A DNA stretch of 64,000 nucleotides, taken from contig CAMAYG010000005.1 of the NCBI GenBank assembly GCA_945862535.1, forward strand, positions 19,952-83,951, written 5' to 3'. The position numbers were made by a program, and so were the translations under genes. Positions 11,931 through 51,400 of this stretch are shown here, piece by piece. The notes under the pieces were generated by a model. The model was not told the origin of the DNA. It saw only the letters and a list, made by a program, of their open reading frames with translations, and did not search any database. Numbering within the stretch: the stretch's first letter is position 1; every line of letters begins with the position of its first letter. This stretch comes from Rickettsia typhi (GTDB lineage Bacteria > Pseudomonadota > Alphaproteobacteria > Rickettsiales > UBA1997).

Positions 11931-11982
11931 TATGGTTTTAAATTTTAGAACTTTAAGTGAAATAATAGCTTGAAAACTAGAA

Positions 11983-12895: not shown

Positions 12896-12924
12896 CTTGC
12901 CGTTGTTAATATATTAATGACTAT

Positions 12925-30945: not shown

Positions 30946-30980
30946 ATTACAATGAATTAGTAGTTTTTTGTAAAATTAGA

Positions 30981-31298
30981 TTAAATATTTTCTTCAATCC
31001 ATTCTATTAAGCTATTTTTCGGCAATGCTCCAATCTTTGTATCTACCAATTTATTTTGTTTAAAAATCATTAAAGCAGGAATACCGCGAACAAGGAATTT
31101 AGAAGGAAACTCTGGGTTTTCATCGACATTACATTTGTATATAGTAATTTTATCTGCCATTTCTTGGCTAAGTTGATCGATAATAGGACCTAATTGACGG
31201 CAAGGACCACACCATGGAGCCCAAAAATCTACTAAAATTGGTTTAGTGCTATTTTCGAGAATTTCGGAAAAATTGCTATCGTTAATTTCTTGAGACAT
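30981..31298 (-). CDS. trxA: thioredoxin
   Basis: 105 aa with the active site VDFWAPWCGPCRQL. Confidence 0.9.
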   Translation of the reverse strand: MSQEINDSNFSEILENSTKPILVDFWAPWCGPCRQLGPIIDQLSQEMADKITIYKCNVDENPEFPSKFLVRGIPALMIFKQNKLVDTKIGALPKNSLIEWIEENI

Positions 31299-31379
31299 TT
31301 AATTTATTGATTGATTCATATTTTATAACAAAAACAATTTAGTAATAACTTTTTATTTTTCAAGGTCATTAGTTTGTTT

Positions 31380-32246
31380 TTAAAATAATTTTTCATTTAC
31401 TGCCATTTTTTCATTTACTGCTACCGCGATATAATCTAGATTACCAACATCCTCTGCCATTTTAACCTCAACAATATCATTATTTACATTAGCAATTGTA
31501 CCAACTAATATTCCTGAAGGCATTATATTGCCATCGCCAGAAGTAAATATTTTTTCACCAACTTTAAGAAAATGATTCTTTTGCAAATATAATATCTCCA
31601 TATTGCCGTTGTTCTTACCAGCTATAATTCCTTTTATTCTCTTATTTTCACTAATAACAGGGATTTTTGATTTAGAATCTGTTATTAATATAATTATCGA
31701 CCTATTTTTCTCTACCTTTATCACCCTCCCTATAATTCCTAATCTTCCTAATATAATAGAGTTTTCAACTATCCCATGATCTAAACCAATATTGATAAAA
31801 TAATGATTGTTAAATATTTGCCCACTTCTGCCAATAAATTTAGCAATTTTAAAGTTATTAAATTTAAGGCGGTTTACTTGTAGAATCTTATCTATTTCTT
31901 GATATTCTTTTTTTAAATTAACCATCTCCAGATAATGATTTTTTAAAATAATATTTTCTTGTTTTAGTTTTATATTTTCTTTTTTTGCAATTATTAGCTC
32001 GTGAAAGCTGTTTAAAGCTTCAATAGAGCCATCAAAAGGGAAATTTATTATTTTTACTATTGGTAATGAAATTTTAATAAAAAATAGCGATATTTTATTA
32101 TGAAAATCACGATTATTTTTAGTTATAGTTAAAAATAAGATACATAAAATTATTAAAAAAATCGTTTCAAATTTTTTTAAAAAAATCTCTAGACTCTTTT
32201 TAATACTGCTAGAATTTTGATACCTAGGATTAAAATACTGATTCAT
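31380..32246 (-). CDS. mreC: rod-shape-determining protein MreC
   Basis: It has an N-terminal TM helix, a coiled coil (ENIKLKQENIILKN) and beta-barrel motifs (GRLGIIGRVIKVEKNRSIIILITDSKSKIPV, FTSGDGNIMPSGILVG). Confidence 0.75.
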   Translation of the reverse strand: MNQYFNPRYQNSSSIKKSLEIFLKKFETIFLIILCILFLTITKNNRDFHNKISLFFIKISLPIVKIINFPFDGSIEALNSFHELIIAKKENIKLKQENIILKNHYLEMVNLKKEYQEIDKILQVNRLKFNNFKIAKFIGRSGQIFNNHYFINIGLDHGIVENSIILGRLGIIGRVIKVEKNRSIIILITDSKSKIPVISENKRIKGIIAGKNNGNMEILYLQKNHFLKVGEKIFTSGDGNIMPSGILVGTIANVNNDIVEVKMAEDVGNLDYIAVAVNEKMAVNEKLF

Positions 32247-32257
32247 TAAATTATTTT

Positions 32258-32947
32258 TTAAAGTTTGTAATAAATGGCTTCAAATTTATCTTTAGCAATA
32301 TTAATTATTTTATTTTGTGATTTTTTATAGTTAAAATTTATTAGATTTTCTTGATAAATTTTCTCAATAGAAGTAATGCCAAAATCTTTAATACCACAAG
32401 GAATAATATTATTGAAAGCATTTAAGTCTGGAGCAATATTAATTGCTATTCCATGATAAGATACCCATTTTTTTAATTTAATTCCTATTGCGGCGATTTT
32501 TTCTTCGTTTTTCTTATTAATAACCCAAATACCAACACGATTTTGCCTTATTTCTCCTTTAATATCAAATGATTTTAAAATTTCAATAATCCAATCTTCT
32601 AAAAATTTAACAAAAAATGAAATATCTGGGGTTTTACCTAGAAAAAACCTTTTTAAATCGATAATTAAATAACATATTTGCATTTTTGGACCATGAAAAG
32701 TATATTTTCCGCCACGATTTACCATTATTACCGGAATATCGTTTTTGGAAATTAAATCTTCTTCTTTTGCACTAATTCCAGCGGTGTAAACATTTTTATG
32801 TTCTAAAAACCAAATTAATTGAGGTTTTTTATTTAAAAAAACCTCTTCAGCCCTAGATTCCATAATAGATAAAGCGGTAGAATAATCAATTAAATTATCT
32901 TCAAAAACCCATTCTAAAGAACTTAAATATTCGTCTTTATTTATCAT
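32258..32947 (-). CDS. lipB: octanoyltransferase (lipoate-protein ligase B)
   Basis: Motifs are WFLEHKNVYTAG, NRGGKYTFHGPKMQICY and KIAAIGIKLKKWVSYHGIAINI. Confidence 0.85.
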   Translation of the reverse strand: MINKDEYLSSLEWVFEDNLIDYSTALSIMESRAEEVFLNKKPQLIWFLEHKNVYTAGISAKEEDLISKNDIPVIMVNRGGKYTFHGPKMQICYLIIDLKRFFLGKTPDISFFVKFLEDWIIEILKSFDIKGEIRQNRVGIWVINKKNEEKIAAIGIKLKKWVSYHGIAINIAPDLNAFNNIIPCGIKDFGITSIEKIYQENLINFNYKKSQNKIINIAKDKFEAIYYKL

Positions 32948-32954
32948 TTTACAA

Positions 32955-34025
32955 CTAATTTTTTTCGCGAATCGTTTTTACTAACAATTCAACATTTTCA
33001 ATTGGAGTTTCTGGCAATATACCATGTCCAAGATTAAAAATAAAAGAGTTTTGATTAAAATCTTTTACTATTTGCTTTGCCGATTTAACAATATTTTCTT
33101 TACTACCAAATGCTAATAAGTAATTGTCAAAATTACCTTGAATCGTTGTTTTAAAAGGTTTTTGAATGTTTTCAACCACCCAATTATTGTTAAAATTCTG
33201 GTCAATTGCCAAGCAATCAAATTTAACATTTTTAGCAAAATCTAATATCATCGATCCGCTCCCTTTGGCAAAACATATGATTGGAGTATCTGGAAATACT
33301 TCTTTGATTTTATTAACAATTTTAGCATTTGGTTTAATAACAAAATTTTGATAATCGTTAAAAGGTAATATTCCAGCCCAAGAGTCGAATAGCTTTATTA
33401 TATCTGCCCCTGCAAATATCTGTTGTTTAAGATAAATAACTACAGCATCTACTATTATATCTATTAATTTTTCGAAGAAATCTGGGTTAGAACAAATTAT
33501 TTTTTTAACTTTTTCAAAATTTTTAGATCCTCCGCCTTCAATCATATAACAAGCTAAAGTAAAAGGAGACCCAGAGAAACCTATTAAAGCTTTATCTGAA
33601 GGCATTTTACTTTTTGTAATATTTATTGCCTCAAAAACTGGCGCTAAATGGCTTTTTACCTGATTTACTTTAAGTTTTTCCAAGTTAAAATTTTGGTCTA
33701 TATGGTTAATTTTTGGTCCTATTTTTTCGATAAATTCTACTTTTAAACCAAGAGCATCGGGTATCGTTAAGATATCGGAAAAAATAATAGCAGCATCAAA
33801 ATCAAATCGTTTTATTGGCTGTAAAGTTACTTCGGAGGCAAGTTTTGGATTATAACATAAATCTAAAAAACTGCCAGCATTTTTTCTTATTTCTCGATAT
33901 TCAGGTAAATATCTTCCTGCTTGCCTCATTATCCATATTGGAGGATAAATTTGTGGTTTTTTATCGACTAAAGCGGAAATAATTTTTTTCTCATCAAGAT
34001 TTATTGTTTTCAGTTCTTTTTTCAT
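32955..34025 (-). CDS. hemE: uroporphyrinogen decarboxylase
   Basis: Motifs are PIWIMRQAGRYLPEYREIR, FDFDAAIIFSDIL and LFDSWAG. Confidence 0.9.
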   Translation of the reverse strand: MKKELKTINLDEKKIISALVDKKPQIYPPIWIMRQAGRYLPEYREIRKNAGSFLDLCYNPKLASEVTLQPIKRFDFDAAIIFSDILTIPDALGLKVEFIEKIGPKINHIDQNFNLEKLKVNQVKSHLAPVFEAINITKSKMPSDKALIGFSGSPFTLACYMIEGGGSKNFEKVKKIICSNPDFFEKLIDIIVDAVVIYLKQQIFAGADIIKLFDSWAGILPFNDYQNFVIKPNAKIVNKIKEVFPDTPIICFAKGSGSMILDFAKNVKFDCLAIDQNFNNNWVVENIQKPFKTTIQGNFDNYLLAFGSKENIVKSAKQIVKDFNQNSFIFNLGHGILPETPIENVELLVKTIREKN

Positions 34026-34517
34026 TTTTAAATGAGTATATTTTAATAGAGTTTATAAAATGTTAATATTTCTTAATTATCAACATTTTATTAACAAAAA
34101 CCACTTTAATAGAGTCTTATTTTACCAAGATTTTTAATAAAATTGTTAATAGTTTTTCTGTTAATATTTTTTGTTATTAAAATGTTGATAATAGTTAATT
34201 TTTTGTTAATAAAATTATTTTTAATAAATCCTTGTTGATAGATTGTTAATAAAAGAAGGATTGTTAATAAAACCTTAGTAAATTGTTAATAAAAAACTGT
34301 TAAAACAAATTATTTATTGGTTTTAATTAATGGTGAAAATTGTTAATAATTTTAACTCTAAAAGATTATTACAATATTTTCAATTTTCAATTTGCTTTTT
34401 GCTTTTTATTTATTAATTATATTGGTTAAAATATAATTTGCTATTTGTTGGTTGATTTATTTATTTATTATATTGAAAAAGAGTTTCATTATACTTGCTA
34501 ATCTTTGGAGGAATTCG
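34026..34517. other. candidate chromosomal replication origin (oriC) region
   Basis: This is a very AT-rich spacer next to hemE. It has 5 same-orientation copies of ATTGTTAATA(A/G) (34142, 34242, 34260, 34282, 34339) plus 3 TGTTAATA cores. It has 3 near-consensus DnaA-box 9-mers (34077-34085, 34183-34191, 34233-34241) and one TTAA-N7-TTAA (34195-34209). Flanking genes diverge from it. Confidence 0.5.
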
Positions 34518-36084: not shown

Positions 36085-36852
36085 ATGTCGATACAAGTAA
36101 TGTTATTTGATAATTTTATTAAAAACAAAATAAATTTATCAAAAGATAAGTTAATGACAATGAAAAAAAAAGAAAAACAAAAAGAAGAACCAAAAGAAAT
36201 AAAGTTTTGTAGCTCTTTGCAGTTTAATCAAAGACAAAAAATGAACGGCATCGATCTATTATCAAAAATAGATAATGAGACTACTAAAGCAGTATTTTTC
36301 GATCCTCAATATCGTGGTATATTAGATAAACAAAAATATGGCAATGAAGGAATTTTACGAGACAAAAGAAGATGTAATCTTGAGCAAATGCCAGAAGAAA
36401 TGATTGTTGAATTTATTAAAGAAATAGATAGAGTTTTACAGCCTTCCGCCTATTTATTTTTGTGGATCGATAAGTTTCATTTATGTGAAGGAGTTTCTGG
36501 TTGGTTTAGTAATACAGCTTTACAAACGGTCGATTTGATGATATGGGAAAAGCCAAATATTGGCATGGGTTATCGCACCAGAAATAAATGCGAATTTTTA
36601 TTAATTTTACAAAAGAAGCCAATAAAAGCTAAATCAACCTGGACAATCCATAATATTCCTAATGTTTGGAAAGAGAAAGTGATAACTAAAATCCACCCAC
36701 ATACAAAACCCCTAGAAATGCAGAAAATTTTAATTAATGCAACAACTAATGAAGGGGATATTGTTATTGACCCTGCGATGGGAAGTGGTTCTGTTTTACA
36801 ATCTTGCCTAGAAACAAATAGAACTTTTGTTGGTTGCGATATTAACGGCTAA
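36085..36852 (+). CDS. beta-class DNA methyltransferase (N6-adenine or N4-cytosine), type II R-M
   Basis: The catalytic motif IV variant VFFDPQYRG lies N-terminal, and the AdoMet motif I (IVIDPAMGSGSVLQSC) lies near the C-terminus. This IV->I order marks the beta class. Confidence 0.75.
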   Translation: MSIQVMLFDNFIKNKINLSKDKLMTMKKKEKQKEEPKEIKFCSSLQFNQRQKMNGIDLLSKIDNETTKAVFFDPQYRGILDKQKYGNEGILRDKRRCNLEQMPEEMIVEFIKEIDRVLQPSAYLFLWIDKFHLCEGVSGWFSNTALQTVDLMIWEKPNIGMGYRTRNKCEFLLILQKKPIKAKSTWTIHNIPNVWKEKVITKIHPHTKPLEMQKILINATTNEGDIVIDPAMGSGSVLQSCLETNRTFVGCDING

Positions 36853-36864
36853 AATCAAAAAAAA

Positions 36865-37581
36865 ATGGCTAAAATTAAAGATGCAAAGGCAAAAAATTCG
36901 AGCGGCTCATATGCTAGAGTCTTTAACAATAAAGCACTTGGAGATTTAATTACCAAGGTTCATAGCACCTCTATTTCTAACGGATCTGAATTAGAAAATT
37001 TGATTTTACATTATATAGTCAAAGATTTTATAGTAGAAGACTGTGATGAATTTTTACACAATTTTAAAAGATTTAATAATACAGAAGCTGATATTATAAG
37101 ATTAATACCAAAAAAAATATTAAAAAAATCTAAAACATTAAAGCCTCAAAAAAACCCTGAAAATAAAACTTTTGAACCAGATTTCGTCGTGTTAAAAATT
37201 GACTCAATACAACAATGTTGCTATATTATCGAGTTAAAAGATGGGTTCGTTTTTGATACAAAAAAAGTGATTGGTGAAAGAAGGCATTTAGAAGATTTTG
37301 AAAATTATATTGCTAAACAAATACCTTTTGCAACTAAAATCAAGTTTTGTTGCTTTAATGAAACCAGTAAAGAAAAAATCAAAAATGGCTTAAAAGGCGC
37401 TTTTGATGTTAATGAAATTATGACAGGAGAAGAGTTTTGTGCCCTAGTTAAAATCGACTACGATAACATTATAAGGCTAAGAAAAAATGATAGTGTAGAG
37501 AATATCGATTATTTTATTGATGAATTATTAAAAATAGCAAATATAAAAGAGTTAATCGTAGAAAAGTTGGGAAATAAGTAA
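36865..37581 (+). CDS. putative type II restriction endonuclease (PD-(D/E)XK)
   Basis: It starts 12 nt after the methyltransferase. EPDFVVLKIDSIQQCCYIIELKDG fits a PD...(E)XK nuclease core. No specific enzyme family was recognised. Confidence 0.45.
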   Translation: MAKIKDAKAKNSSGSYARVFNNKALGDLITKVHSTSISNGSELENLILHYIVKDFIVEDCDEFLHNFKRFNNTEADIIRLIPKKILKKSKTLKPQKNPENKTFEPDFVVLKIDSIQQCCYIIELKDGFVFDTKKVIGERRHLEDFENYIAKQIPFATKIKFCCFNETSKEKIKNGLKGAFDVNEIMTGEEFCALVKIDYDNIIRLRKNDSVENIDYFIDELLKIANIKELIVEKLGNK

Positions 37582-37643: not shown

Positions 37644-39269
37644 ATGTCTAATATCAAAAATACTCGCTTCATTTTTATTACTGGCGGGGTGGTTTCTTCT
37701 TTGGGAAAAGGTTTGGCTTCTGCATCTCTTGGGGCTTTGTTGCAAGCTCGGGGCTATAAAGTAAAGCTTAGAAAGCTCGATCCTTATTTAAATATCGACC
37801 CAGGCACAATGAGCCCCACTCAACACGGCGAAGTTTTTGTAACCGAAGACGGTGCAGAAACCGACCTTGACATTGGGCATTACGAAAGATTTACTGCGGT
37901 AAATGCTAAAAAAACCGACAGTGTAACCGCAGGTAAAATTTACAGTAAATTACTAGCAAAAGAAAGAAAGGGCGACTATTTAGGCGGAACGGTGCAAGTA
38001 ATACCGCATGTTACCGACCTAATCAAAGAATTTATTTTGAACGATGTCGCCGATGTCGATTTTGCCTTATGTGAAATTGGCGGAACGGTTGGCGATATTG
38101 AGGCCTTGCCGTTTTTCGAGGCAATTCGTCAGCTCGATTACGATCTTGGGGCAAAAAGATGTGCTTTTCTACATTTAACCTTATTGCCCTTTATTGAAAG
38201 TGCCGATGAGCTTAAAACTAAACCAACTCAGCATTCTGTTAAGGAATTACGATCAATCGGCATTCAGCCCTCTGTTTTATTATGTCGAGCCGAAAGAAAA
38301 ATTAGCCCAAGCCATCTCGACAAAATTGCCAAAATGTGTTCGATGCCTCTAAATTCGGTCATCGCCGCCCCTAATGTTAAAAATATCTACGAAGTTCCGT
38401 TAGTCTATCATCAAAATGGGCTCGATAGTGAAATATTAAGGTTTTTTAATATTATCGCCCCAGAGCCAGATTTAGCAAAATGGCATGCCATTAGCGATGC
38501 AATAAAAAACCCAGAAAAGGAAGTCCGCATTGCTTTGGTTGGTAAATATAATGGCTATCGCGATTCTTATAAATCTATCCTAGAAGCTTTAGATCATGCT
38601 TCTTTTGCTTTAAAAACCAAGATCAAAATAATCTGGATTGATGCTCGTAAAAAAACTAACCCAGCCGAAATATTTTCTAGCGAAAAAATCGATGGTATTT
38701 TGGTGCCCGGAGGCTTTGGAGTAGACGGCACCGAAGGCAAGATTGCCATGATTTCTTATGCAAGGCAAAATCAGGTTCCTTATCTTGGAATTTGCTTTGG
38801 AATGCAGATGGCAGTAATAGAATATGCCCGCAATGTTTTAGGAATTGCCGATGCCACTTCTAGCGAAATAGAAAAAGATGGCACGATGCTAATTGGCACA
38901 ATGGAGCAATGGCAAAAAGATAGCGGAGAAATTAGCAAGAAAAGCGAAAATCTTGGTGGCACAATGAGGCTTGGGGCTTATAAATGCAACATCGACCCTA
39001 ATTCTTTAGTGGCAACAATCTATCAAAAGCCAACAATTAGCGAAAGGCACCGCCATCGCTATGAAGTAAATATTAATTATCGTCAAAAACTAGAGCAAGA
39101 AGGGCTAAAATTTTCGGGAATGTCTCCCGATAACCAACTAACAGAAATTGTTGAAATTACCGACCATAAGTTCTTTATTGGGGTGCAATTTCACCCAGAG
39201 TTAAAATCTAAGCCATTCGACCCTCACCCACTTTTCCTAGCCTTTGTAAAATCGTTAATTGCCGATTAG
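37644..39269 (+). CDS. pyrG: CTP synthase
   Basis: Motifs are [45 protein letters not shown] and HRHRYEVN. Confidence 0.95.
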
Positions 39270-39426
39270 TTTATTGTGGCAACAAGAGGTCTAGCCACTT
39301 GTTTTTCTAGAAGACAAAGCCAATGAAATAGCGGAGTTAAATAACCATCCCCTCTTAATTATTTCTGGGGGAGGGTTGGAAACACCGTCACCCTGCGCGA
39401 AGTCGCAGGGTCATAGTCCTCCAGCT

Positions 39427-39535
39427 GTCATCCTGCACGAAGTTGCAGGATCCAGAGCGATAAAATCAACACTAATCGGAACTTCGCTAAAATGTATCAT
39501 TAATCTATAGATCCTGCAACTTCGTGCAGGATGAC
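39427..39535. repeat. family-1 palindromic MITE-like element, full copy (109 bp)
   Basis: It reads GTCATCCTGCACGAAGTTGCAGGATC - 57-bp AT-rich core (CAGAGCGATAAAATCAACACTAATCGGAACTTCGCTAAAATGTATCATTAATCTATA) - GATCCTGCAACTTCGTGCAGGATGAC. The terminal 26-bp hairpins are inverted repeats of each other. Confidence 0.85.
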
Positions 39536-39640
39536 GACAGAGGGCGGTTTTGTGGTAATAAATGCAAATTTTAAAAAGTCGCGAAGATCCACCTCCGCTG
39601 TCATCCTGCGCGAAGTCGCAGGATCTATAGTCCTCCAGCC

Positions 39641-39750
39641 GTCATCCTGCGCGAAGTCGCAGGATCTATTAATTACTAAATACATTTTGGCGAAGTTTCT
39701 TTTAATATTGACTTCATTACTCTGGATCCTGCGACTTTGCGCAGGATGAC
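39641..39750. repeat. family-1 palindromic MITE-like element, full copy, core inverted relative to 39427 copy
   Basis: It reads GTCATCCTGCGCGAAGTCGCAGGATC - CTATTAATTACTAAATACATTTTGGCGAAGTTTCTTTTAATATTGACTTCATTACTCTG - GATCCTGCGACTTTGCGCAGGATGAC. Confidence 0.85.
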
Positions 39751-39759
39751 AGCGGAGCT

Positions 39760-40086
39760 GTCGTCTGGACTGCTTATTCTAGGAACCAAGGTCGTGTCAT
39801 TTCCTATTACATCGGCGAAGGAGTAAGAACCGCAACTAATTTATATCTCCAAGTAAAAAACATCGTTCCCAATGTCGCTAAAATCTGCACCGATGCCAAT
39901 AGTTGCTACGATATTGCATTTAAAAGATTTGGTGTGGCAGATTTGGAGTGAAATATTTGGAGTGAAATATTTGGAGTAACGGAGCCTCATATCGTTACTA
40001 AAAGAGAGACTCACTTGATAGAATCGTCAAATAGTAGCATCAGAGATAATCTTGCCAAAACCAAAAGATTTTCCAAAACATTATAG
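39760..40086 (+). pseudogene. remnant of an IS1-like transposase (C-terminal part, disrupted)
   Basis: My translation has two parts: ..VVWTAYSRNQGRVISYYIGEGVRTATNLYLQVKNIVPNVAKICTDANSCYDIAFKRFGVADLE* and, in another frame, HIVTKRETHLIESSNSSIRDNLAKTKRFSKTL*. The pattern (..TD..Y... H.V.K.ET..IES.N..IR..L.R..R.T..FSK) is IS1-family-like. A 14-bp triplicated insert (39941-39980) breaks the frame. Confidence 0.45.
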
Positions 40087-40386
40087 ATGCTAGACACTAC
40101 CCTAAAACTCTTTTTTAACAGAAATTTACTATGGCAACACTAAAATAACAGTGCCCCTTGAGGGAGGGTAAATTTGCTAGCAATTTCGGGGAGGGGTCAG
40201 AAGTATTTTCAACAAAATTAGGGCTAAGGTTGTGATGAGTTTTCTTACCCCGCCCCGCATCGCCAATTTATTGGCTCTGCGACCCTCCCTCAAGGGGAGG
40301 GTTGGAAACATTATGCTTTTCGCCTTCGACCCTCCACCGCCGTCATCCTGCGCGAAGCTTGCGAAGGTCCATGGTTCCCTCCAGCC

Positions 40387-40496
40387 GTCATCCTGCGCGA
40401 AGTCGCAGGATCTATAGATTCCTAAATACATTTTAGCGAAGTTTCTTTTAATATTGATTTCATTACTTTAGATCCTGCAACTTCGTGCAGGATGAC
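40387..40496. repeat. family-1 palindromic MITE-like element, full copy (110 bp)
   Basis: It has the same hairpins and core as the 39641 copy (..GGATCTATAGATTCCTAAATACATTTTAGCGAAGTTTCTTTTAATATTGATTTCATTACTTTAGATCC..). Confidence 0.85.
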
Positions 40497-40624
40497 GGTG
40501 CAGGAAGTTTTTTGTGGTTGCAAATAAAACACTTTTTCTTACGATTTTTTACTTAAAAAACAATGTTTTATGCTATTGTAGGTAGTGAAATAGCCAATTG
40601 GTGTTAGTTGTTTTGTGGTGCCTA

Positions 40625-42478
40625 TTATGAGTTATTTTTAATAATTTTGTCGATTAATTCAAAAATTGCTTTGAAATTTTCAAAATCTGAATATTGGAAG
40701 TTCGCAGTATCAGACGCAAACTTTGATTTTTTATTATAATCTTTGGTAATGATTTTAATTGTATTGCCGCCAACTTGTTCTTTATCTTCTAATAAGTTTA
40801 TAATTTTGTCATCACTAAACAAATATTCAATACAAACTTCGCTATCTTTTCCCCATTTTACACTGACAAGATTTATTCTATTTGTTGGAATTGGCAATAA
40901 AAATACAAACCCATTTTGACTTCCATGCTTTAAACATAACCCCTTATTGATATTATCCTCGTAATCAAAGTACTTCTTACCTTTGCTATTTTTAATCTCC
41001 TCATATTTTTCATAGGCATCATCAAAATCTAACATGCCAATAAAGGTTTTCTTGTTTTTTAGAAAAATATCACCTCTTTTAAAAGTATTAGCAATGAAGT
41101 GCATATCAAACGCATCTTGGATGTAAAATGGTATTTGGCTATTAGGATAAAGTTTCCTCCAAGCATTTTCTAAAATAATTTTATCTGTTTTTCCTTCTAC
41201 AAACAATACAGGTTTATCATCTTGAGCTTGCATGATTTTTTTAAGGTCTTCTTCAAATTTCTTTGTCTCCTTAAAATAATCATAGGCTTTATCAAATTCT
41301 CTGAATCTCTCCGCTGTTATAACATCACCAGTTGGCATCTCTCTAATTTCTATACCATTCGTGCCGAATTTTTTTTCCATTCCTAATAAAAACAATGGGG
41401 AATGAGTTGTAATAATAAATTGCACCTTTGGGAATAGGCTTATTAACGCTGGCAATACATTACTCTGCAAATCAGAATGCAAATGTAAGTCTATTTCGTC
41501 TATAATAACAATACCAGACATTTTGTCATTTGTATGTGCAATATTGCCACGCTCACCATATCTCACAACAGTACAAAATAAACTGAATAACACTGATTGC
41601 CCCGTTGATAAATTATTTAAACTTGGAATTATTTCCTGTTTGTTTGTACCATCTATAACTTTTATACGGGAAAGTGGATGATTTCTATAATTTAAATCAA
41701 GCTCTGCATCTCTCTTGAGTATTTTAGTTAGTATTTGCTCTATATTTTCTTTTGATGTTACGAGCAGTGAACGTGTCTCTACATCATTATTTTGAATATC
41801 ATAAGTACTACCTTCTCTGTGTTTTGCGATAACTGAAGCATCTAGAAAAACATCAAGAATCCAAGAGTTGATATCATCATAAGCAGATTCAATAATAAGT
41901 GGATCATTAAGTCTTCCGGAATATCTTTGCTTGTGAACAAGTTTATTTTTTCCGCTATCATAAACTTTATTAATCCAATGGGGCATCTCAAATCTATTTG
42001 GCGGAAAGTAGCAATAACTATTGCGTAAGAAAGTGTTTTCGAGTTCTTGATTTGTTAGATTTGTGATTTGTTTACCTTTCTCTTTATCAATGTTCAATGT
42101 GCATTCATTCATATTATTCTTTAGTTCCGAATCCGTAACTTCTCCTGTCGTTTCCAAATATTCATATTTCTTATTGTTGTTTTCAAATTGCAAATAAGAA
42201 ATTGAATTTGACGCACCGATCCTTGTATTGCCACCACCAACTGTTTTAAAAAAGGAATATCCGTTACTGTTTCTTTTTAATACTTCATCTTGTTTAAATG
42301 TGCTGTTTTGAAATTCTAGTATTGCATCAGCAATATGAGATAATAAAATGCTTTTGCCAGTTCCATTTTCACCAACTATTATAAGTGGTTTTGGCTCTCC
42401 GTTTTCTTTAAATGGCATTGAAATATCGAGTTTTTCAATTGCCCCGATGTTTTTGATAAAAATCTTTTTTAAATACAT
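40625..42478 (-). CDS. ABC-type ATPase fused to a C-terminal TOPRIM/DUF4435-like nuclease domain (OLD-family / fused PARIS-like defence candidate)
   Basis: 617 aa. It has Walker A (VGENGTGKS), a signature-like NLSTGQSVLF, Walker B (IVIIDEIDLHLH) and an H-loop (FIITTHSP). The C-terminal ~190 aa carries PVLFVEGKTDKIILENAW (TOPRIM Glu) and IGMLDFDDAY (DxD). Confidence 0.7.
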   Translation of the reverse strand: MYLKKIFIKNIGAIEKLDISMPFKENGEPKPLIIVGENGTGKSILLSHIADAILEFQNSTFKQDEVLKRNSNGYSFFKTVGGGNTRIGASNSISYLQFENNNKKYEYLETTGEVTDSELKNNMNECTLNIDKEKGKQITNLTNQELENTFLRNSYCYFPPNRFEMPHWINKVYDSGKNKLVHKQRYSGRLNDPLIIESAYDDINSWILDVFLDASVIAKHREGSTYDIQNNDVETRSLLVTSKENIEQILTKILKRDAELDLNYRNHPLSRIKVIDGTNKQEIIPSLNNLSTGQSVLFSLFCTVVRYGERGNIAHTNDKMSGIVIIDEIDLHLHSDLQSNVLPALISLFPKVQFIITTHSPLFLLGMEKKFGTNGIEIREMPTGDVITAERFREFDKAYDYFKETKKFEEDLKKIMQAQDDKPVLFVEGKTDKIILENAWRKLYPNSQIPFYIQDAFDMHFIANTFKRGDIFLKNKKTFIGMLDFDDAYEKYEEIKNSKGKKYFDYEDNINKGLCLKHGSQNGFVFLLPIPTNRINLVSVKWGKDSEVCIEYLFSDDKIINLLEDKEQVGGNTIKIITKDYNKKSKFASDTANFQYSDFENFKAIFELIDKIIKNNS

Positions 42479-42574
42479 ATCTTAAATAGTTAAATTTTCC
42501 ACAGCCCTAAGCTTATCAACACTTAAGTCGTAAAGAGGGTAGCGAAGTTGCGAGTATCAATGGCTCCCTCCCTT

Positions 42575-42648
42575 GTCATCCTTGCGCAAAGTCGCGAGTA
42601 TCCAGAGCAATAAAATCAATAGATCCTGCGACTTCGCGCGAGGATGAC
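42575..42648. repeat. family-1 element, short copy (core truncated)
   Basis: It reads GTCATCCTTGCGCAAAGTCGCGAGTATC-CAGAGCAATAAAATCAAT-AGATCCTGCGACTTCGCGCGAGGATGAC. Confidence 0.7.
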
Positions 42649-42777
42649 GGCAGAAGGTAGATCCTGCGACTTCGCGCGAGGATGACGGTAGAAGGTAGAT
42701 CCTGCGACTTCGCGCAGGATGACGGCAGAAGGTAGATCCTGCGACTTCGCGCGAGGATGATGGTGTAGTGGGAAGGT
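42621..42777. repeat. spacer-less tandem array, 37-38 bp x 4, of the family-1 hairpin (AGATCCTGCGACTTCGCGCGAGGATGACGGCAGAAGGT)
   Basis: Copies start at 42621, 42659, 42697 and 42734, and the last is diverged at its 3' end. The ORF 42576..42818 just translates it (repeated LPSSCAKSQDL / ILARSRRIY). Confidence 0.9.
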
Positions 42778-42877
42778 TCGCGGAGAAAAACTAGGCTTCT
42801 AGACTTCGAAGGCTTCAACTAGACTGCAACGGCGGGAACCTTAGAAAAACCCACCTTCGCATTTAGCTAAATGGAGC

Positions 42878-44827
42878 TTAAGCAAGCATTTTTTGGAGAC
42901 GAAGAGAGAAGTCTGAGCTGTCTTTTATTGGTTCGTCTTCGATGATACAAGCCAGATCGAACAAAGTTTTTACTTTGTCGGTGCAGATTTCTTTTAGACT
43001 AAGGTTTTGATAGTTGTCGTTGAGATATTTTATAATTGAGTTATTGCTGTTGATTTCGAGGATTTTAGCAGTTGCAGAATTGATTTGCTTTTGCTCAAGC
43101 AAGAATCTTTCGAGCCTAATGTCCATGCCGATAGAATCTACCGCTAAACATACCGGGCTATTGGTAAGTTTTTTTGAGATTCTGACATCGGCAACTTGAG
43201 TGCCAAGAACTTCTTTAAAGAATCCTATTAGCCCTTCTAATGCTGTCTCGGTAATGTCTTTGATTTTTTCGTCCTTTTTTGTGCCGTCTTCGTTTTGCTC
43301 TTCTGCTTTTTGTTCGTCTAGAGGCTTGTCAATATTAATTAAATCGATATCGTTACGATTAATCGACTGAAATTCCCATTCGATTTTGCTTGATTTGTTC
43401 TGATAAGGCAAAGCAACGGTTACCCAAAATTCATCGACAGCATCTGTAAGAAATAACACCTCGACATCCTTATTGTAGAAGGCTTCTAGCTGAGGAGAAT
43501 TTTTGATTTTATTAACATTTTCTCCGGTTAGGAAATATATTTTATTTTGCCCCGCTTTTGCTCTTTCGAGATATTCGCTAAGGCTAATTAGTTCATTAGG
43601 AGATTTCGAGCTGTAAAAACGAGAAATTTCGAGGATTTTTTCGCGGAATTCCGATGCTTCGCACAGCCCTTCTTTTAACACCGCACCAAAATTATTCCAA
43701 AATTTAAGATATTCTTCTTGGTTTTCATTGGCTTTTTTCTTGAGTTCGCCTAAAACTTTGCCAATTAGGGATTTTTTGATTTTTTCAATTAAGGCACTGT
43801 GTTGCAGGTTTTCACGGCTAATGTTGAGTGGCAAATCTTCCGAATCGACTACTCCTCTTAGAAACCGCAAATAAGCAGGAACAAGGCTTAAATCTTCGCT
43901 AATAAAAACTCTTTTAACATAAAGTTTTAAAGCGGTGCGACGATCGGGGTGGAATAGGTCAAAAGGCTTAGTGCTAGGAACAAATAACAGATTGCTGTAT
44001 GAAACTAGGCCCTCGACCTTGTTGTGGATTGTCATGAATGGCTCGCCCGGTAAATGAGCGATGTGGCGGAAGAATTCTTGATATTGTTCTGCGGTTATTT
44101 GTTCTTTTGGTCTTTGCCAAATTGCCGATGCCGAATTTAGAGTTTCAATTTTTGCTCCTTCGCTGATATTTTCTGGGATGAAATCTATTTTAAAGTTGAT
44201 GTGATCGGAATAGGTTTGCACGATGTGCTTAATGTGGAAGCGATCGAGGAAATCTGAGGCATCGTCTTTTAAAAACAAGGTAATAATTGTGCCTTGTTTA
44301 AAATCTGACGATAATTCTTGATTGTGTTGATTAAGCTCGAAACCGCTATTGCCGTCTGAGGCCCAGAAATAGGTGTCTTGTTCTTGATATTTACGAGAAA
44401 TAACCTCTACTTTATCGGCGATCATAAAGCTAGAATAAAAGCCAACCCCAAACTGCCCTATTAATTGCAGGTCTTTTTTGCTGTCTCCGCTAAGGTTTTT
44501 TAAGAAATTCTCGGTGCCAGAGCGAGCAATAGTGCCTAGGTTGTCGATTAAATCTTGTTTATTCATTCCGATACCGTTGTCGCTAATGATTAATTGCTTT
44601 TTTTCTTTATTAACTTTGATGTTAATTTTTAATTCTTCTAAATTTTCTTGATGTTGTTGATTAGCCAGATACCGCAACTTGTCGCAAGCATCGGCAGCAT
44701 TAGATATTAACTCGCGAAGGGCAACATCGCGATTAGTATAAAGCGAATTTATCATAAGGTTTAAAACCTTGCTAACTTCGACATCGAATTGATAGTTGTT
44801 GTTTGTGTTGTTAGATTGTTCTGTCAT
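42878..44827 (-). CDS. htpG: molecular chaperone HtpG (Hsp90)
   Basis: Motifs are LRELISNAADACDKLRY, DNGIGM and GQFGVGFYS. Length is 649 aa. Confidence 0.95.
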   Translation of the reverse strand: MTEQSNNTNNNYQFDVEVSKVLNLMINSLYTNRDVALRELISNAADACDKLRYLANQQHQENLEELKINIKVNKEKKQLIISDNGIGMNKQDLIDNLGTIARSGTENFLKNLSGDSKKDLQLIGQFGVGFYSSFMIADKVEVISRKYQEQDTYFWASDGNSGFELNQHNQELSSDFKQGTIITLFLKDDASDFLDRFHIKHIVQTYSDHINFKIDFIPENISEGAKIETLNSASAIWQRPKEQITAEQYQEFFRHIAHLPGEPFMTIHNKVEGLVSYSNLLFVPSTKPFDLFHPDRRTALKLYVKRVFISEDLSLVPAYLRFLRGVVDSEDLPLNISRENLQHSALIEKIKKSLIGKVLGELKKKANENQEEYLKFWNNFGAVLKEGLCEASEFREKILEISRFYSSKSPNELISLSEYLERAKAGQNKIYFLTGENVNKIKNSPQLEAFYNKDVEVLFLTDAVDEFWVTVALPYQNKSSKIEWEFQSINRNDIDLINIDKPLDEQKAEEQNEDGTKKDEKIKDITETALEGLIGFFKEVLGTQVADVRISKKLTNSPVCLAVDSIGMDIRLERFLLEQKQINSATAKILEINSNNSIIKYLNDNYQNLSLKEICTDKVKTLFDLACIIEDEPIKDSSDFSLRLQKMLA

Positions 44828-45185: not shown

Positions 45186-46148
45186 TTAGTTTTCTGTGGA
45201 GATTTCGCGGGCAATTCCCTTAAAATTCTCTAGAGCAGGTTGAACGAAGTTTAATTGTTTGTTGCTAGTGGTTGCGAAAAAATCTTGACGATTGTAAGTC
45301 AAATCATCTTTTTCTTGTTCGCCTTCTTCGTTGGTAAATGTTTGACTACTTTTTTTACCAAAAGGTGGATTGGCTAAAACATAATCGTAAGTTATTGGCG
45401 AAGAGGCAATTAAGGCATCTGCTGGCGAAATAAAATTAGCACTGTCGATGTCGCCAATATTATGCAAAAACAAATTCATCAAAGCTAATCGTCTTGTTCC
45501 CGCTACAATCTCATTGCCATAAAAAGTTTGAAGTTTCAAAAATTTATTTTGTTCTTTGTCTAATTTATTGCTTGCAACCAAATAATCATAAGTAGCCAAA
45601 AAGAAACCTCCTGTGCCACAAGCGGGGTCGGCAATTGTTTTGCCAAGCTTCGGGGCAACACATTCAACCATTGCTTTGATTAGCGGTCTTGGGGTAAAAT
45701 ATTGCCCCGCACCACTTTTTACATCTTTGGCATTTTGCTCTAAAAGGCTTTCGTAAATATCGCCTTTAACATCGGCGCCAAGCACCAACCATTGCTCGCT
45801 ATCGATCATATCGATAATTTTGGCAAGCATTGCCGGGTCTTGAATTTTATTTTGACTCTTCACAAAAATTTGCCCTAAAATTCCTTTGGCATTGCTCAAT
45901 TCGCGAAGTAGATGGCTGTAGTGCAATTCTAACTCCGCACCTTTTTTTTTAGTCAAACTTTCCCAATTAAAATCTTTTGGAATGCCTAATTTTCGATGGT
46001 GCGGAGGCTTTTCATATTCATCCGCCATTTTTAAAAATAGCAAATAGGTAAGTTGTTCTAAATAGTCGCCATAACCTACTCCCACATCGCGAAGCGGATT
46101 GCAGAAAGACCAAACTTTTGAAACTATTGAAGAGGTATTTTTACTCAT
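45186..46148 (-). pseudogene. hsdM: type I R-M methyltransferase HsdM, C-terminally truncated
   Basis: The HsdM N-domain (LRDVGVGYGDYLEQLTYLLFLKMADE), motif I (ADPACGTGGFF) and motif IV (LANPPFGKK) are present. The protein stops ~55 aa after NPPF at ...NKQLNFVQ|PALENFKGIAREISTEN*, where full-length HsdM proteins continue for ~150-200 aa. No hsdS or hsdR is in the window. Confidence 0.7.
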
Positions 46149-46156
46149 TTTTTAAA

Positions 46157-47233
46157 TTATTGCTCGTTAATTAAGTTGATAATTAATTTTATCATCAATT
46201 CTTTTTCTTTTGGATTGCTTTGTGCAACCAATAATGCCAAGGCTACCAGCCCATTATCATTAATTTTTAATTCGCCAGATTTTTTTAAAGAATGTTGGTT
46301 TTTAGCAAGAAACCAAATAAATAAAAATGCTCCGATTCTTTTATTGCCGTCAGAAAATGGATGATTTTTGATAATAAAATAAAGCAAATGCGAAGCCTGT
46401 TCTTCAATGCTTTTGTAAAGATATTCACCGGCAAAGCTTTGGGTAATATTTCCTAAAATTCCTGCAAAACTGCAATCTTTCTGATTGCCAAAAAGCTCGC
46501 TTGCTTCCTTTTTTTGAATCAACTGCTTTTTTAATTCGTCAATTGCTTCGCAAGCCTCTTTATAGCTAATTTCGTAAGTTATATTTTGATCTAATTTTGC
46601 AAGATGAAGCGAGTCGGAATCGAATTGGTTTAGTAAAATAAAACTACTGGTGTAATTGGTGATAATGTCTAAAAAGCCCTTACTTTCAAGGGCTGAGAGC
46701 TCTTTTAAGTCAACAGAATTTTGAATTAATTTAATGGTTTTTTGTAGTTCAATAAGATTTTCTTGATATTCCTTAACCCGCTTTTCATTAATCGCAAAGC
46801 CTTTCGTCAAATAGTTTTTAAGCCTTTCCGTTGCCCAAATTCTAAATTGTGTTCCTTGTTTTGAATTAACTCGATAGCCAACCGAGATAATAGCATCAAG
46901 ATTAAAATGCTCAACTTGATAAATTTTTTGATCGGATCCACTTGTTGCAGAAAATGCAACAACTTGATTTCTATCTAATTCTTCTTCGGCAAAAATATTT
47001 TTCAAATGTCTCGAAATTACCGATTTATCGCGATCAAAAAGTTGAGCGATCTGATTTAAAGAAAGCCACAAAGTTTCTTTTTCAAACTTAATTGCAATTT
47101 GAGCAGAGCCGTTTTTTTCCTGATAAATCTCGATTTTATTTTGTAGAGCAGTGTTTTGCGGAGCCTTATCTTTTATGGCCTTATTAGCTGTTGTGGTTTT
47201 AATTTTCGTAGTGTTTTTGTTAATTTTTGTCAT
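46157..47233 (-). CDS. RhuM-like N-terminal domain fused to Fic/Doc-family domain
   Basis: The N-terminal part (WLSLNQIAQLFDRDKSVISRHLKNIF...ISVGYRVNSKQGTQFRIWAT) is RhuM-like. The C-terminal motif HPFSDGNKRIGAF is the Doc-type variant (Lys instead of Gly) of HxFx(D/E)GNGR. It ends 8 nt upstream of hsdM'. Confidence 0.75.
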   Translation of the reverse strand: MTKINKNTTKIKTTTANKAIKDKAPQNTALQNKIEIYQEKNGSAQIAIKFEKETLWLSLNQIAQLFDRDKSVISRHLKNIFAEEELDRNQVVAFSATSGSDQKIYQVEHFNLDAIISVGYRVNSKQGTQFRIWATERLKNYLTKGFAINEKRVKEYQENLIELQKTIKLIQNSVDLKELSALESKGFLDIITNYTSSFILLNQFDSDSLHLAKLDQNITYEISYKEACEAIDELKKQLIQKKEASELFGNQKDCSFAGILGNITQSFAGEYLYKSIEEQASHLLYFIIKNHPFSDGNKRIGAFLFIWFLAKNQHSLKKSGELKINDNGLVALALLVAQSNPKEKELMIKLIINLINEQ

Positions 47234-47560: not shown

Positions 47561-47668
47561 GTCATCTTCGCACAAGTTGCAGGATCCAGGGCAATGAAAT
47601 CAATATTAAAGTGAACTCCGCTAAGTGTATTATAAATCCATGGATCCTGCAACTTCGTGCAGGATGAC
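47561..47668. repeat. family-1 palindromic MITE-like element, full copy
   Basis: It reads GTCATCTTCGCACAAGTTGCAGGATC-CAGGGCAATGAAATCAATATTAAAGTGAACTCCGCTAAGTGTATTATAAATCCATG-GATCCTGCAACTTCGTGCAGGATGAC. Confidence 0.85.
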
Positions 47669-48089: not shown

Positions 48090-48223
48090 AAGGGAGCGAG
48101 TGCAGGATGACAAGGGAGCGAGTGCCGTTATTAACTATGGATATTTGCAACTTCGTGCAGAATCCATAGCAGAAAAGTCGAACAACAGCAACACCGCCAT
48201 ATTCTCGCGAACTCTCTTAATTG

Positions 48224-48445
48224 TCATCCTGCACGAAGTTGCAGGATCCAGAGTGTTGTTTTTAAACTACCTTTTTCTATAACAAACTTAGCGTCATTGA
48301 TGTTAAGTTGTGCAAGAATTTCGTTAAGTCCGTTATAAAATACCACTACCTGTTCGGGTGTTAAATACTCTTTATACTCAATTTTCAGATCTGCCGTCTC
48401 TGGTGGAAATAAGTTTGCTTGTGGAGATAAGTTTGCTTCTTTCAT
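48224..48445 (-). CDS. small hypothetical ORF coupled to the type IIG gene; C-terminus and stop supplied by a solo family-1 hairpin
   Basis: The start lies 3 nt after the upstream stop codon. The last ~8 codons (..LWILQLRAG*) are encoded by GTCATCCTGCACGAAGTTGCAGGATCC (48223-48249). Confidence 0.35.
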   Translation of the reverse strand: MKEANLSPQANLFPPETADLKIEYKEYLTPEQVVVFYNGLNEILAQLNINDAKFVIEKGSLKTTLWILQLRAG

Positions 48446-48448
48446 ACT

Positions 48449-51400
48449 CTACTCAACTAAACCCTCCACCACTGCAATTTCCTCTTCACTCAAGCCATAT
48501 AAAGCATAAACCATTTTGTCGATTTCTGTGTCGGTTTGAGTGAAGGCTGATTTCAATTTCCTTATTTCGGCTTGTTTTTCTTCAAAGCGTTCAAGCCATT
48601 TTTCTTCTTGTTTTGCCGTTAATTCAAATTTTTGCTTTGCAATTTCCGATAAAAACTCATTCCAAGAAAGCTCACTCCATTTTTGGATTTGTTTGTTGAT
48701 ATTGATTTTTGGAAAATCGCCAGCAAGGAGCTTAAAGAACTGCTGATTTATTGTGTTGACTGTGTTGTTCGTTTCAATCATCAATTCAACTTTTTTGACA
48801 ATCTCCGCTTGTTTATCATCGCTTGCAATGGCAAGTGGTATTTTACAAAGTGGTTCTATGTCTATTTGGTAATTTGAGCCCTGCATTTTACCTTTGTTTT
48901 TTAAGTAAAATGCTATTAACTTTGAATTCAAAAGCCCTGTGAGGTATTTAAGATTTATGTCCGTTGGCTTGATGACATAAAAAGTTGCGGAAACATAAGA
49001 GTCAAAATCAACATAGCTAAATCTTGGTTTTTCTGTGCATTTTCTAAGTGATATTATTTTCTCACCAATAAAAAAGTCCTCATCCCTTGCTCTGTGTAAG
49101 CCATAAGGTGCATTGTCGGATGTTATAACTTTTACAAACTTATCCAAATGTTTTTTTATGTTTGGATATTCCTTGATTTTATCAGGCTTTTTAAAGCTTG
49201 AATCTGTGTAAATTGTCCACCTTGTGTTTTTGTTGTCGGCAAAATATCTATCAATTTGCTCGGTAGTGTATTCTGGTTTTACAATTTCAAGTTCTTTTGT
49301 GGTTAAACTCAAAGCATCCTTTTCTGCCGTTGTTATGCTAAAAATTCCATCGCCAACTTTAAAATCTTTGCCGAGGGTTTCTTGGCTTTTCTTGTTAACC
49401 GCATCTTGTGGAAATACTATGCCTTGAGCGACATCATTTTCCTTCAGCTTATAAATACCAATCTTTTCAATTTTGTTTATAATTGGGGTAAATTCTTGTT
49501 TTACAAAGTGAATTGTATTATCAATTAAGCTTGCACTTTCAAGCTCTATTGTTTCAAATGTGGTTTTTTGAAGGCTGTCAGCAATTGCAACTTGCTTGTG
49601 TGTGAATAACTTACCTTCTGCGTTGCTAAGCTTGCAATGCTCAACTTCGTGTCTTTCTGTTGGTGTTTTATGCAAGAAAAATATCATTGTTTGAATATCG
49701 GCGGCTTTAAAAACCTTGTTATCACTAAAGTCTATATATCTTATAAGCTGTGAGCTTTGTATTATCTTGTTTCTTGTTTTTGAAGCTCCGTGGTTGGTAA
49801 CCCAGCTACTTGGTGCAATGTAAGATAAATACCCATCATCATTTAGCAAATCCAAACCCAAACAAGCAAAAAACTGCCAAAAGTCCATTTTGCCTTGATA
49901 ATATTGCGAAATAAACGGCGGTTTATTTTGTGCCGAAGTGTTTTTATGAATTTTATATCTAGAATTATTAGGGTTTAGTGGCTCAAAAATCTCTCTGTGT
50001 TTATCTTCTTTAATATAAGGAGGATTGCCAACAATAACATCAAACTTGAAGCCAAATTCCTTTTGCCAATCAAATGCGAGTGATTTACTAAATAGATTTA
50101 CTTGTTTTTCTTTGTCTAAATCACCTAGCATATCGTTGGCATTTGCTATTAGTTCGTAAACAACTTTACCTTCATATTCATCATATCTTCCTGCGATATT
50201 TTCATCTTCAATAAGGCTATTGCCAATTTTTATATTTCCATCCAGACTTAAGAGCTTTTCTTTGTTATATGCTGTTTTTAGCCATAATGAAAGCTTTGTG
50301 ATTTCGGCGGAGTTTGGGTTTATATCAACCCCGTAAATATTGTTTTGTAGAATAAACTTGTAATTATTATCAATGCCTAGCTTTTTCCATTCGTGCAGTA
50401 AAAAATCTAAAACTTCAACCAAAAATGCACCACTTCCACAAGCTGGGTCAAGAACTTTTATTGATGACAAAGATTTTTTACACTCCTCTAAAAACTCATC
50501 TGAACCCTCCTCATAAGTTTTTGTAATTTGTATCTTTTTATCATTAAACCATTTGCCAATTGCCTCGCTTACTATATATTTTGTAACATAAGAAGGTGTG
50601 TAATAAACTCCAAATTTTTCTTGTTCGTTCTTTTCTTTTACTATATTATCTTTATCCTCTTCGGCTTCGTTTTGCAAATCTGATATAGATTTTTCAAAAA
50701 TATGCCCTAAAATTTCAACATCAAGCTCACTTCTAAAAGCATAATCAAGAACAAATAGCAATCTGTCAATTTCATCATCTTCAATGTGAAGCTCATCAAT
50801 AAATTTATCTTCCTTAAACAAACCTCCATTAAATGCTGGTATTTGTGGATTGATTTTGTTATTACCGATATTTATTGAATGAAAGACATCTTTTAAGTGT
50901 TTATATTTGCTTCCATGTCTTTGTTTTTTAACATCATTATCCAAGGTGTCGTAAGGCATCAAGCCTCTTTCTTGGCAAAATACAATAAAAATTATCCTTC
51001 TAAGCAGTTTATCTGAAGCATACAGGCAAAAACCTTTTCGTTCTTGTAAATGATTAGTGCTAATTAAATGCTCCTTTAGTAAGGTTCTATTTGTTTTGTA
51101 GAGACTGTAAAACTCTTCTTGAATTTTTTCTTTATTCTCCTCTCTATCAAGGATAATATTATGAACGGATGATTTTAAATACTGAACCGTAAATAAATTT
51201 CCATTAGCAAGCAGTAGGTGAAATTCCTTAATTTTGTTATCGTCGCTTGCTAGCTCCTCAATAGTAAAAGAGTGGTATTTATTTGCATCTGTTGATTTAT
51301 ATAATCTTATTTCTTTAAAATTACTAACAATAACAAATTCGCATTTGCCACCAACTTTTGGTGCATATAAAAAACCCTGCTCAACAGGTGTAATTGTTAA

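Follow-up and report, generated by a model that had tools for sequence, protein, structure and literature searches.

A PtuA-Toprim fusion gene between pyrG and htpG

The subject of this analysis is a single gene within a 64,000-nucleotide (nt) stretch of DNA labelled Rickettsia typhi (order Rickettsiales; assembly GCA_945862535.1, contig CAMAYG010000005.1, forward-strand positions 19,952 to 83,951), hereafter the window, whose first letter is position 1 throughout. The gene occupies 40625-42478 on the minus strand, stop codon included, and encodes a 617-amino-acid (aa) protein in which an ABC ATPase is joined to a Toprim nuclease domain; we refer to it as the fusion gene. Its open reading frame (ORF) is intact and full-length, and the protein is laid out as ATPase (residues 1-388), linker helix (residues 389-417) and Toprim domain (residues 418-617). 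We find that the ATPase belongs to the PtuA clade of Septu and retron I-A and that the Toprim domain, as judged by profile comparisons, belongs to the retron I-C/Eco2 lineage. No description of a PtuA-Toprim fusion was found in the literature searched. The flanking genes are pyrG (37644-39269, plus strand) and htpG (42878-44827, minus strand), the two neighbours named in an earlier prediction made from the sequence alone (hereafter, the original prediction), and the ORF listing and gene calls hold no other credible gene in the interval between them.

The original prediction had also recognised an ABC ATPase and a Toprim domain in one stand-alone protein. This architecture is borne out, and the six motifs it quoted (GENGTGKS, LSTGQS, IIDEIDLHLH, ITTHSP, LFVEGKTDKI and LDFDD) all lie where it had placed them. 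In a family alignment of the fusion protein and 38 homologues (39 sequences, 35-87% identity), the functional residues K42, S291, G293, D327, E328, H359, E428, G429, D432, D484, D486, E551 and K584 are invariant or at least 90% conserved, and chance motif matches are therefore far exceeded. Since M1 and Y2 are also kept across homologues, the start codon is correct. The identical protein is encoded on two metagenome contigs, in two assemblies, and the gene is under purifying selection (dN/dS of 0.24-0.44 against two relatives). An Rfam scan of 39000-43200 found no retron RNA, and returned only sub-threshold matches of microRNA hairpins to the palindromes described below.

The ATPase domain belongs to the PtuA clade

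The ATPase domain (41315-42478, minus strand, as are all features of the fusion gene) has a large insert between its Walker A and signature motifs. Walker A, GENGTGKS (residues 36-43; 42350-42373), contains K42 and is invariant at G36, N38, G39, G41 and K42, and the ABC signature LSTGQS (residues 290-295; 41594-41611) is invariant at S291 and G293. In the Walker B/D-loop segment IIDEIDLHLH (residues 325-334; 41477-41506), E328 and H332 are invariant and D327 is at least 90% conserved, while the H-loop ITTHSP (residues 356-361; 41396-41413) was located through its motif and the family alignment and supplies H359.

Assignment to the PtuA clade draws on PADLOC, Pfam, PDB and Foldseek comparisons. 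PADLOC models of PtuA match the protein at E-values from 6.4e-34, the best, to 1e-18, and several of them, including PDLC00271, span residues 1-367, whereas Pfam identifies the ATPase only as AAA_21 (3.8e-12) and SMC_N. In the PDB, PtuA chains from Septu and from the retrons Ec78 and Ec83 match the sequence best (1.8e-13 to 7.7e-9). With an AlphaFold2 (AF2) model of the fusion protein (mean pLDDT 81.7), all of the top 50 Foldseek matches in the PDB were PtuA (50/50, E = 1e-14 to 1e-11), at an identity to the solved PtuA structures of ~18%. The NCBIfam PtuA equivalog model was not reached, the protein scoring 90 bits against a cut-off of 500. The original prediction had considered the insertion at residues ~60-290 to be unlike any known subfamily; because PtuA models align across residues 1-367, this segment is instead the ordinary PtuA insert.

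Between the two domains, the AF2 model shows a long linker helix (41228-41314). In PtuA, a C-terminal extension binds the C-terminal domain of the nuclease PtuB (PMC12819146), and the linker helix is probably the positional equivalent of this extension.

The Toprim domain is related to the retron I-C effector Eco2

The Toprim domain (40628-41227) was matched by the PADLOC model RT-Toprim_I-C at 2.5e-8 and by the NCBIfam model retron_Ec67_fus at 9.6e-7 (residues 418-615), and its AF2 model, made from the isolated domain, has a pLDDT of 91. When a profile built from 24 C-terminal domains of the family was run against the PDB, the Ec67/Eco2 chains 9lm3 and 9i2f were recovered at E = 1.2e-11 with the entire domain aligned, followed by AriB at 1.6e-3 and the Aquifex Toprim protein 1t6t at 0.019. 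These comparisons place the domain in the retron I-C/Eco2 lineage, at ~25% identity to its Eco2 relative, with AriB as a more distant relation. The original prediction had expected a Toprim or DUF4435 profile to match here, and the outcome was divided: Pfam DUF4435 gave no match to the C-terminal domain even at E ≤ 10 and OLD-like_TOPRIM reached only 13-15 bits where the cut-off is 23.2 (E = 0.04-0.14), while the two retron profiles matched and DUF3226 did so marginally (1e-3). PADLOC gave no AriB match to the domain.

Motif IV, EGKTD (41183-41197), contains E428 and D432, which are both invariant and align with E374 and D378 of Eco2, and motif V, DFD (41021-41029), contains D484 (invariant) and D486 (at least 90% conserved), which correspond to Eco2 D460 and D462. 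All four Eco2 residues are catalytic (PMC12916289), in agreement with the earlier reading of LFVEGKTDKI and LDFDD as the Toprim glutamate and DxD. Two further invariant residues, E551 (in IEYLF) and K584 (both within 40727-40828), are common to Eco2 in the profile alignment and may also take part in catalysis. According to Mestre et al. (PMC7736814), EGxxD together with DxD is the signature of the I-C Toprim, a lineage apart from the OLD-like Toprims of retron I-B. The fusion protein has EGxxD at motif IV, whereas the OLD-like retron I-B proteins have EGxxE or EDxxL (PMC7736814).

Comparison with known ATPase-nuclease systems

Over residues 1-367, inserts included, the fusion ATPase is alike to the PtuA proteins of Septu and retron I-A (Ec78/Eco7, Ec83), which are also its best structural matches. 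In both systems an ABC ATPase regulates a nuclease effector, and the same logic is proposed below for the fusion protein. The fusion locus, however, is without an adjacent gene for the HNH nuclease PtuB and has a fused Toprim domain instead. The retron I-C reverse transcriptase (RT)-Toprim protein (Eco2/Ec67), a tRNA-nicking abortive-infection effector (PMC12916289), is homologous to the fusion protein over the full length of the Toprim domain, C-terminal helices included, with EGxxD, DxD and four of the four catalytic residues in common. In place of the reverse transcriptase, however, the fusion protein has its ABC ATPase at the N-terminus, and there is no msr/msd RNA. The Eco2 nuclease is caged by multicopy single-stranded DNA (msDNA), whereas in the fusion protein the nuclease would be gated by the ATPase.

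The original prediction had assigned the protein to the OLD nucleases or to fused PARIS, an assignment that has to be replaced, as profiles put the ATPase in the PtuA clade and the Toprim in the retron I-C lineage. The architectural likeness that it noted is real. PARIS (AriA/AriB, fused forms included) pairs an ABC ATPase with a Toprim tRNase, and in the OLD nucleases (P2 Old of class 1, GajA of class 2) one polypeptide has an ABC ATPase at its N-terminus and a Toprim with Glu and DxD at its C-terminus, class 1 OLD being a stand-alone gene like the one studied here. Membership of PARIS was nonetheless rejected: AriA chains in the PDB match the fusion protein at 1.4e-3 over residues 321-368 only, the Walker B/H-loop stretch, no AriA is found among the top 25 PADLOC matches, and DUF4435 is missing. 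Membership of OLD was rejected as well, given the sub-threshold OLD-like_TOPRIM score, an E-value of 0.5 for Thermus OLD (Ts OLD, 6p74) in the PDB sequence search, and no match of AAA_15 to the fusion protein at E ≤ 1, though some homologues do match AAA_15.

A further candidate was HEC-04/IbfA. HEC-04 is a validated single-gene ATPase-TOPRIM defence (Payne et al.), and mutants in its Walker A or in its E/DxD residues lose defence. The fusion protein follows the same one-protein logic, and the spacing from Glu to DxD is 56 residues in both, but HEC-04, with 490 aa, has a much shorter ATPase. A BLASTP comparison covering 399 HEC-04 residues (without the last 91) found only the Walker A and Walker B regions, at E = 0.002-0.004, and membership of this group was likewise rejected.

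Close alleles have exchanged the nuclease core

A 3.5-kb contig from another sample (L175) encodes an allele of the fusion protein, P0003. Its first match to the window, at 42594-41163 with 87% nucleotide identity, begins 115 nt before the start codon and runs to codon ~439; the second, at 40687-40454 with 95% nucleotide identity, takes in the final 63 nt of the gene and continues for 170 nt past it. No nucleotide similarity is detectable in the stretch between both matches (40688-41162, residues ~439-597), where the two proteins have 40% amino-acid identity and the synonymous divergence (dS) is 1.38, compared with 0.32 in the ATPase. A sliding-window comparison agrees with a swapped Toprim core, and the exchanged stretch contains the DxD motif, E551 and K584.

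A third allele, P0002 (the 87% homologue), is identical to P0003 at residues 166-210 and 286-360, yet has the Toprim core of the window. None of the 39 aligned sequences is closely related to the P0003 core, the best match being 33%. From these mosaic identities we conclude that segments have been exchanged between close alleles by recombination, most strikingly the nuclease core. Such mosaic alleles are typical of conflict genes. Past 40454 the second contig runs into an unrelated Fic gene, and because it and the window diverge beyond this point, the downstream edge of the shared unit lies at a palindromic repeat cluster.

A large family with a patchy distribution and no conserved partner

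With the fusion protein as query, a protein search gave 1,649 relatives at E ≤ 0.001, and full-length members range over phyla from Firmicutes to Cyanobacteria. Most of the best 120 have lengths of 590-690 aa, and their hosts include Bacillus, Nostoc, Okeania, Crocosphaera, Acinetobacter, Gallibacterium, Cetobacterium, Sulfurimonas and an archaeon; relatives that bear a name in the databases are called only 'AAA family ATPase'. Three copies are plasmid-borne, one of them on a 12-kb Acinetobacter plasmid beside a RelE toxin, and phage records contain partial ATPase matches only. A search of GTDB representative genomes yielded no close relatives. An alignment-based scan of these representatives found full-length but distant and scattered relatives in Firmicutes, Bacteroidota, Poribacteria, Nitrospirales, Binatia and Proteobacteria, and none in Rickettsiales; the distribution across phyla is patchy.

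The absence of a partner gene, claimed earlier for the window, holds for the locus and for the family: all-against-all BLAST of the flanking ORFs of 38 loci gave a largest neighbour cluster of 3 loci, and no Pfam family occurs more than twice among 113 neighbour proteins. The neighbours of a Bacillus copy encode AbiJ, PIN, integrase and resolvase proteins, and a copy from a gut Firmicute lies between resolvase fragments, adjoining a helicase-MZB-HNH unit and a Schlafen-type ATPase. With loci both in defence or mobile islands and amid housekeeping genes, the support that genomic context lends to a defence role is anecdotal.

The C-terminal profile alone reached much further, matching 4,017 cluster representatives at E ≤ 1e-3 and 2,073 at E ≤ 1e-10 in a set of 1.84 billion proteins. 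In the architectures sampled, the partners of Eco2-type Toprim domains include, besides PtuA-like ATPases, shorter AAA_15/AAA_21 ABC ATPases. Fusions to LRR-Roc-COR GTPases, to a MazF/PemK toxin and, in proteins of 1,050-1,080 aa, to N-termini of ~850 aa that have no Pfam match were seen as well (P0169, P0144, P0129, P0198, P0215 and P0259). The fusions to LRR-Roc-COR, to MazF/PemK and to Pfam-blank N-termini are candidates for further uncharacterised conflict proteins. The lineage behaves as a modular effector, and its promiscuous fusion to sensor NTPases and toxins is as expected of a conflict-system effector.

Two homologues have distinctive surroundings. One, in a 5.2-Mb genome, has a 468-aa gene without Pfam match 10 nt upstream and a gene for a 1,624-aa DEAD/UvrD double helicase after it; this region, at 5584-13754 of its locus, may represent a lineage-specific multi-gene variant. 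The other, 56% identical, comes from the same metagenome as the window but from another Rickettsiales-like contig (9611-11890). Its start lies 10 nt beyond an erpA-like gene, which in turn comes after the genes for ribosomal proteins S10-L3-L4-L23-L2, an unusual insertion site in or just after the S10 operon.

The fusion gene as a probable horizontally acquired islet

There are 11 copies of the 26-nt palindrome GATCCTGCGACTTCGCGCAGGATGAC in the window, where chance would give 0, and 9 of these copies fall in the two intergenic regions beside the fusion gene, in keeping with the dense repeat arrays that had been reported on both sides. The upstream array, of 38-nt palindromic repeats, lies at 42597-42764 in the gap between htpG and the fusion gene. 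The downstream cluster, at 40328-40512, is where the similarity to L175 stops (40454).

The PyrG protein is 80% identical to that of the Rickettsiales metagenome-assembled genome (MAG) UBA1997 and 72-74% identical to those of four further MAGs, of which two bear the label Rickettsiales, one Alphaproteobacteria and one uncultured Rhizobium. In the five closest genomes, htpG, the fusion gene and the neighbouring methylase are all absent within 10 kb of pyrG. Since neither htpG nor a homologue stands near pyrG there, synteny is not conserved and the gene has no positional orthologue; an empty htpG-pyrG site could not be shown in these five genomes. The conserved orthologue at this position that would have spoken for a housekeeping role was thus not found. 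The fusion gene probably came by horizontal transfer as an islet of ~2.1 kb (window ~40454-42594) between palindromic repeats. The original prediction of a horizontally acquired, repeat-bounded islet is supported.

Base composition is a less telling guide. The fusion gene has a GC content of 30.5% (24.8% at third codon positions, GC3), compared with 40.5% for pyrG and 37.7% for htpG, and resembles in this the nearby restriction-modification genes. GC content varies strongly within the contig, however, so that composition is soft evidence for transfer, a point that counts against our interpretation. A housekeeping block at 29000-34100 (tlyC-like, glnA-like, mreC, lipB and hemE) has a GC content of 25-29% and a GC3 of 15-19%. 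The difference between this block and pyrG/htpG points either to strong compositional heterogeneity within the genome or to a chimeric assembly.

Other features of the flanks are repeats and an insertion sequence (IS) fragment. Repeat units of ~38-41 nt built on GATCCTGCGACTTCGCGCAGGATGAC form tandem arrays and inverted pairs at 39373-39766, 40328-40512, 42597-42764, 47643-47668 and 48223-48248; they are concentrated around the fusion gene and near an MmeI-like gene, and translate into spurious ORFs. None of the related loci compared contains the exact pattern. As for the IS1-like remnant named in the original prediction, an element is present at 39763-40083 (plus strand) and appears to be a degraded IS1-family transposase fragment, but its identification is weakly supported: Pfam DDE_Tnp_IS1 matches at E = 0.008, with 17 bits against a cut-off of 24.1, and the fragment contains a stop codon and a 14-nt tandem repeat.

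Proposed function and mechanism

The fusion gene probably encodes a single-polypeptide immune or abortive-infection nuclease. A defence role had been proposed originally and is still the best reading of its function, both domains being nearest to validated defence systems. By analogy with these systems, the PtuA-type ATPase, which in Septu and retron I-A serves as sensor and regulator, would form ATP-sandwich dimers and hold the covalently attached Toprim domain inactive. A phage-derived cue or a drop in ATP would shift the state of the ATPase and free the Toprim active site (E428/D432/D484/D486), which is predicted to use two-metal chemistry. The freed Toprim would then cut host nucleic acid, most likely tRNA, so that translation would stop and phage spread be aborted. 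The PtuB of Septu and retron I-A is clamped between two C-terminal extensions of PtuA, and its release or activity is under the control of ATP or ATP hydrolysis (PMC12819146; PMC12065111). In the fusion protein, the Toprim domain would stand in for the separate HNH nuclease PtuB, joined at the position of the PtuA C-terminal extension via helix 389-417. Regulation by ATP or by a trigger, and oligomerisation, would carry over from the same relatives.

As for the substrate, the nearest Toprim that has been characterised, that of Eco2, makes nicks in the acceptor stems of tRNAs and thereby halts translation (PMC12916289). AriB, P2 OLD and PtuAB likewise target tRNAs. For these reasons we favour tRNA as the substrate of the fusion Toprim, with a confidence that falls a little short of even.

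Several observations weigh against this picture. The tRNA substrate is extrapolated from a relative of about 25% identity, and GajA and Vibrio class 1 OLD cut DNA. Foldseek searches with the isolated Toprim model did not recover the Ec67 structures, and the best matches, PH0156/DUF3226 (0.028) and the C-terminal region of Burkholderia OLD (0.037), are of Toprim type but none is significant, so that the assignment of this domain rests on sequence profiles. PADLOC v2 would report the locus as an orphan PtuA, not as a system. A scan for expression signals detected nothing promoter-like within 400 bp upstream of the start codon and nothing terminator-like across the region scanned, and promoter counts did not exceed those in shuffles. 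Finally, many other copies in the family are solitary among housekeeping genes.

An unlikely alternative keeps defence and architecture but has the Toprim nick or degrade phage or host DNA under ATP control, as GajA and class 1 OLD do. The pairing of ABC ATPase and Toprim is common to OLD and GajA, which act on DNA, and PtuAB on its own, which ATP inhibits, makes nicks in DNA (PMC12819146). A class 1 OLD of Vibrio is reported to nick DNA, and the weak Foldseek matches include the OLD C-terminal regions 6nk8 and 6njw. On the other hand, the Toprim sequence is much nearer to the tRNases Eco2 (1.2e-11) and AriB (1.6e-3) than to OLD, which stays below threshold in Pfam and at E = 0.5 for 6p74, and P2 OLD itself is now reported as a tRNA cutter.

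It is also conceivable, though improbable, that the gene has nothing to do with immunity and serves a mobile element as a selfish addiction or toxin module, or else encodes a housekeeping nucleic-acid enzyme, for example for RecF/RecN-like repair or RNase M5-like RNA maturation. Against this stand the patchy occurrence across phyla, the lack of synteny and the absence from the closest Rickettsiales genomes, together with mosaic alleles and the kinship of both domains to validated defence systems; what speaks for it, besides the several solitary homologues among housekeeping genes, is one JGI homologue annotated as '5S rRNA maturation endonuclease (RNase M5)', the MazF toxin fused to a Toprim of the same lineage, and the RelE toxin beside the Acinetobacter plasmid copy. 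That the gene is a relic without function, decaying in the genome of a reductive symbiont, is very improbable: an IS fragment, repeats and a truncated hsdM do lie nearby, and no promoter-like or terminator-like site was seen, but the frame is full-length, all catalytic and structural invariants are intact, dN/dS is well below 1, and the identical protein occurs in two assemblies.

The defence nuclease that we favour would belong to a major theme of bacterial immunity, the ATPase-gated nucleases (OLD, Gabija, PARIS, Septu, retron I-A/I-B and HEC-04). Its parts and logic are known, while the combination of a Septu ATPase with an Eco2 Toprim is unnamed and uncharacterised. Because a Septu sensor and a retron-Eco2 effector are joined in one protein, it links two systems that are mostly considered apart and supports a mix-and-match origin for both. 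As the family is large and without functional annotation, current defence-finding tools would either overlook it or register an orphan PtuA. The mosaic alleles amount to a natural experiment in which the exchange of nuclease specificity can be followed. More speculatively, and with real doubt, PtuA-ATPase::Eco2-Toprim fusions might form a widespread single-gene immune system in which a Septu-type ATPase gates a tRNA-cutting Toprim, with the core (residues ~439-597) swapped as a cassette among alleles that are nearly identical elsewhere, either so as to alter which tRNA is targeted or as an escape from phage inhibitors and decoy tRNAs, and active even in an intracellular bacterium of the Rickettsiales.

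Restriction-modification units near the fusion gene

The 12 kb around the fusion gene hold three restriction-modification-related units, which count in favour of a defence role. The presence of the fusion gene beside them in a Rickettsiales genome adds to the evidence that mobile elements still put intracellular bacteria under pressure. At 36085-37581, a gene for a 255-aa N6_N4 DNA methylase (Pfam 7.5e-20) ends 13 nt ahead of a 238-aa ORF without a Pfam match, a candidate for the cognate restriction endonuclease, of unknown family; the GC content of this unit is 27-30%. At 45186-47233 (minus strand), a truncated HsdM of 320 aa, covering positions 3-173 of 311 in the N6_Mtase profile, is encoded directly downstream of a 358-aa RhuM/Fic-domain gene; neither hsdS nor hsdR was seen at this locus, which looks like a decayed type I restriction-modification locus. 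At 48449-51802 (minus strand) lies the MmeI-like gene mentioned above, for an intact type IIL restriction-modification enzyme of 1,117 aa. The gene caller gave a 907-aa product for it, with the domains MmeI_N, MmeI_Mtase and Eco57I.

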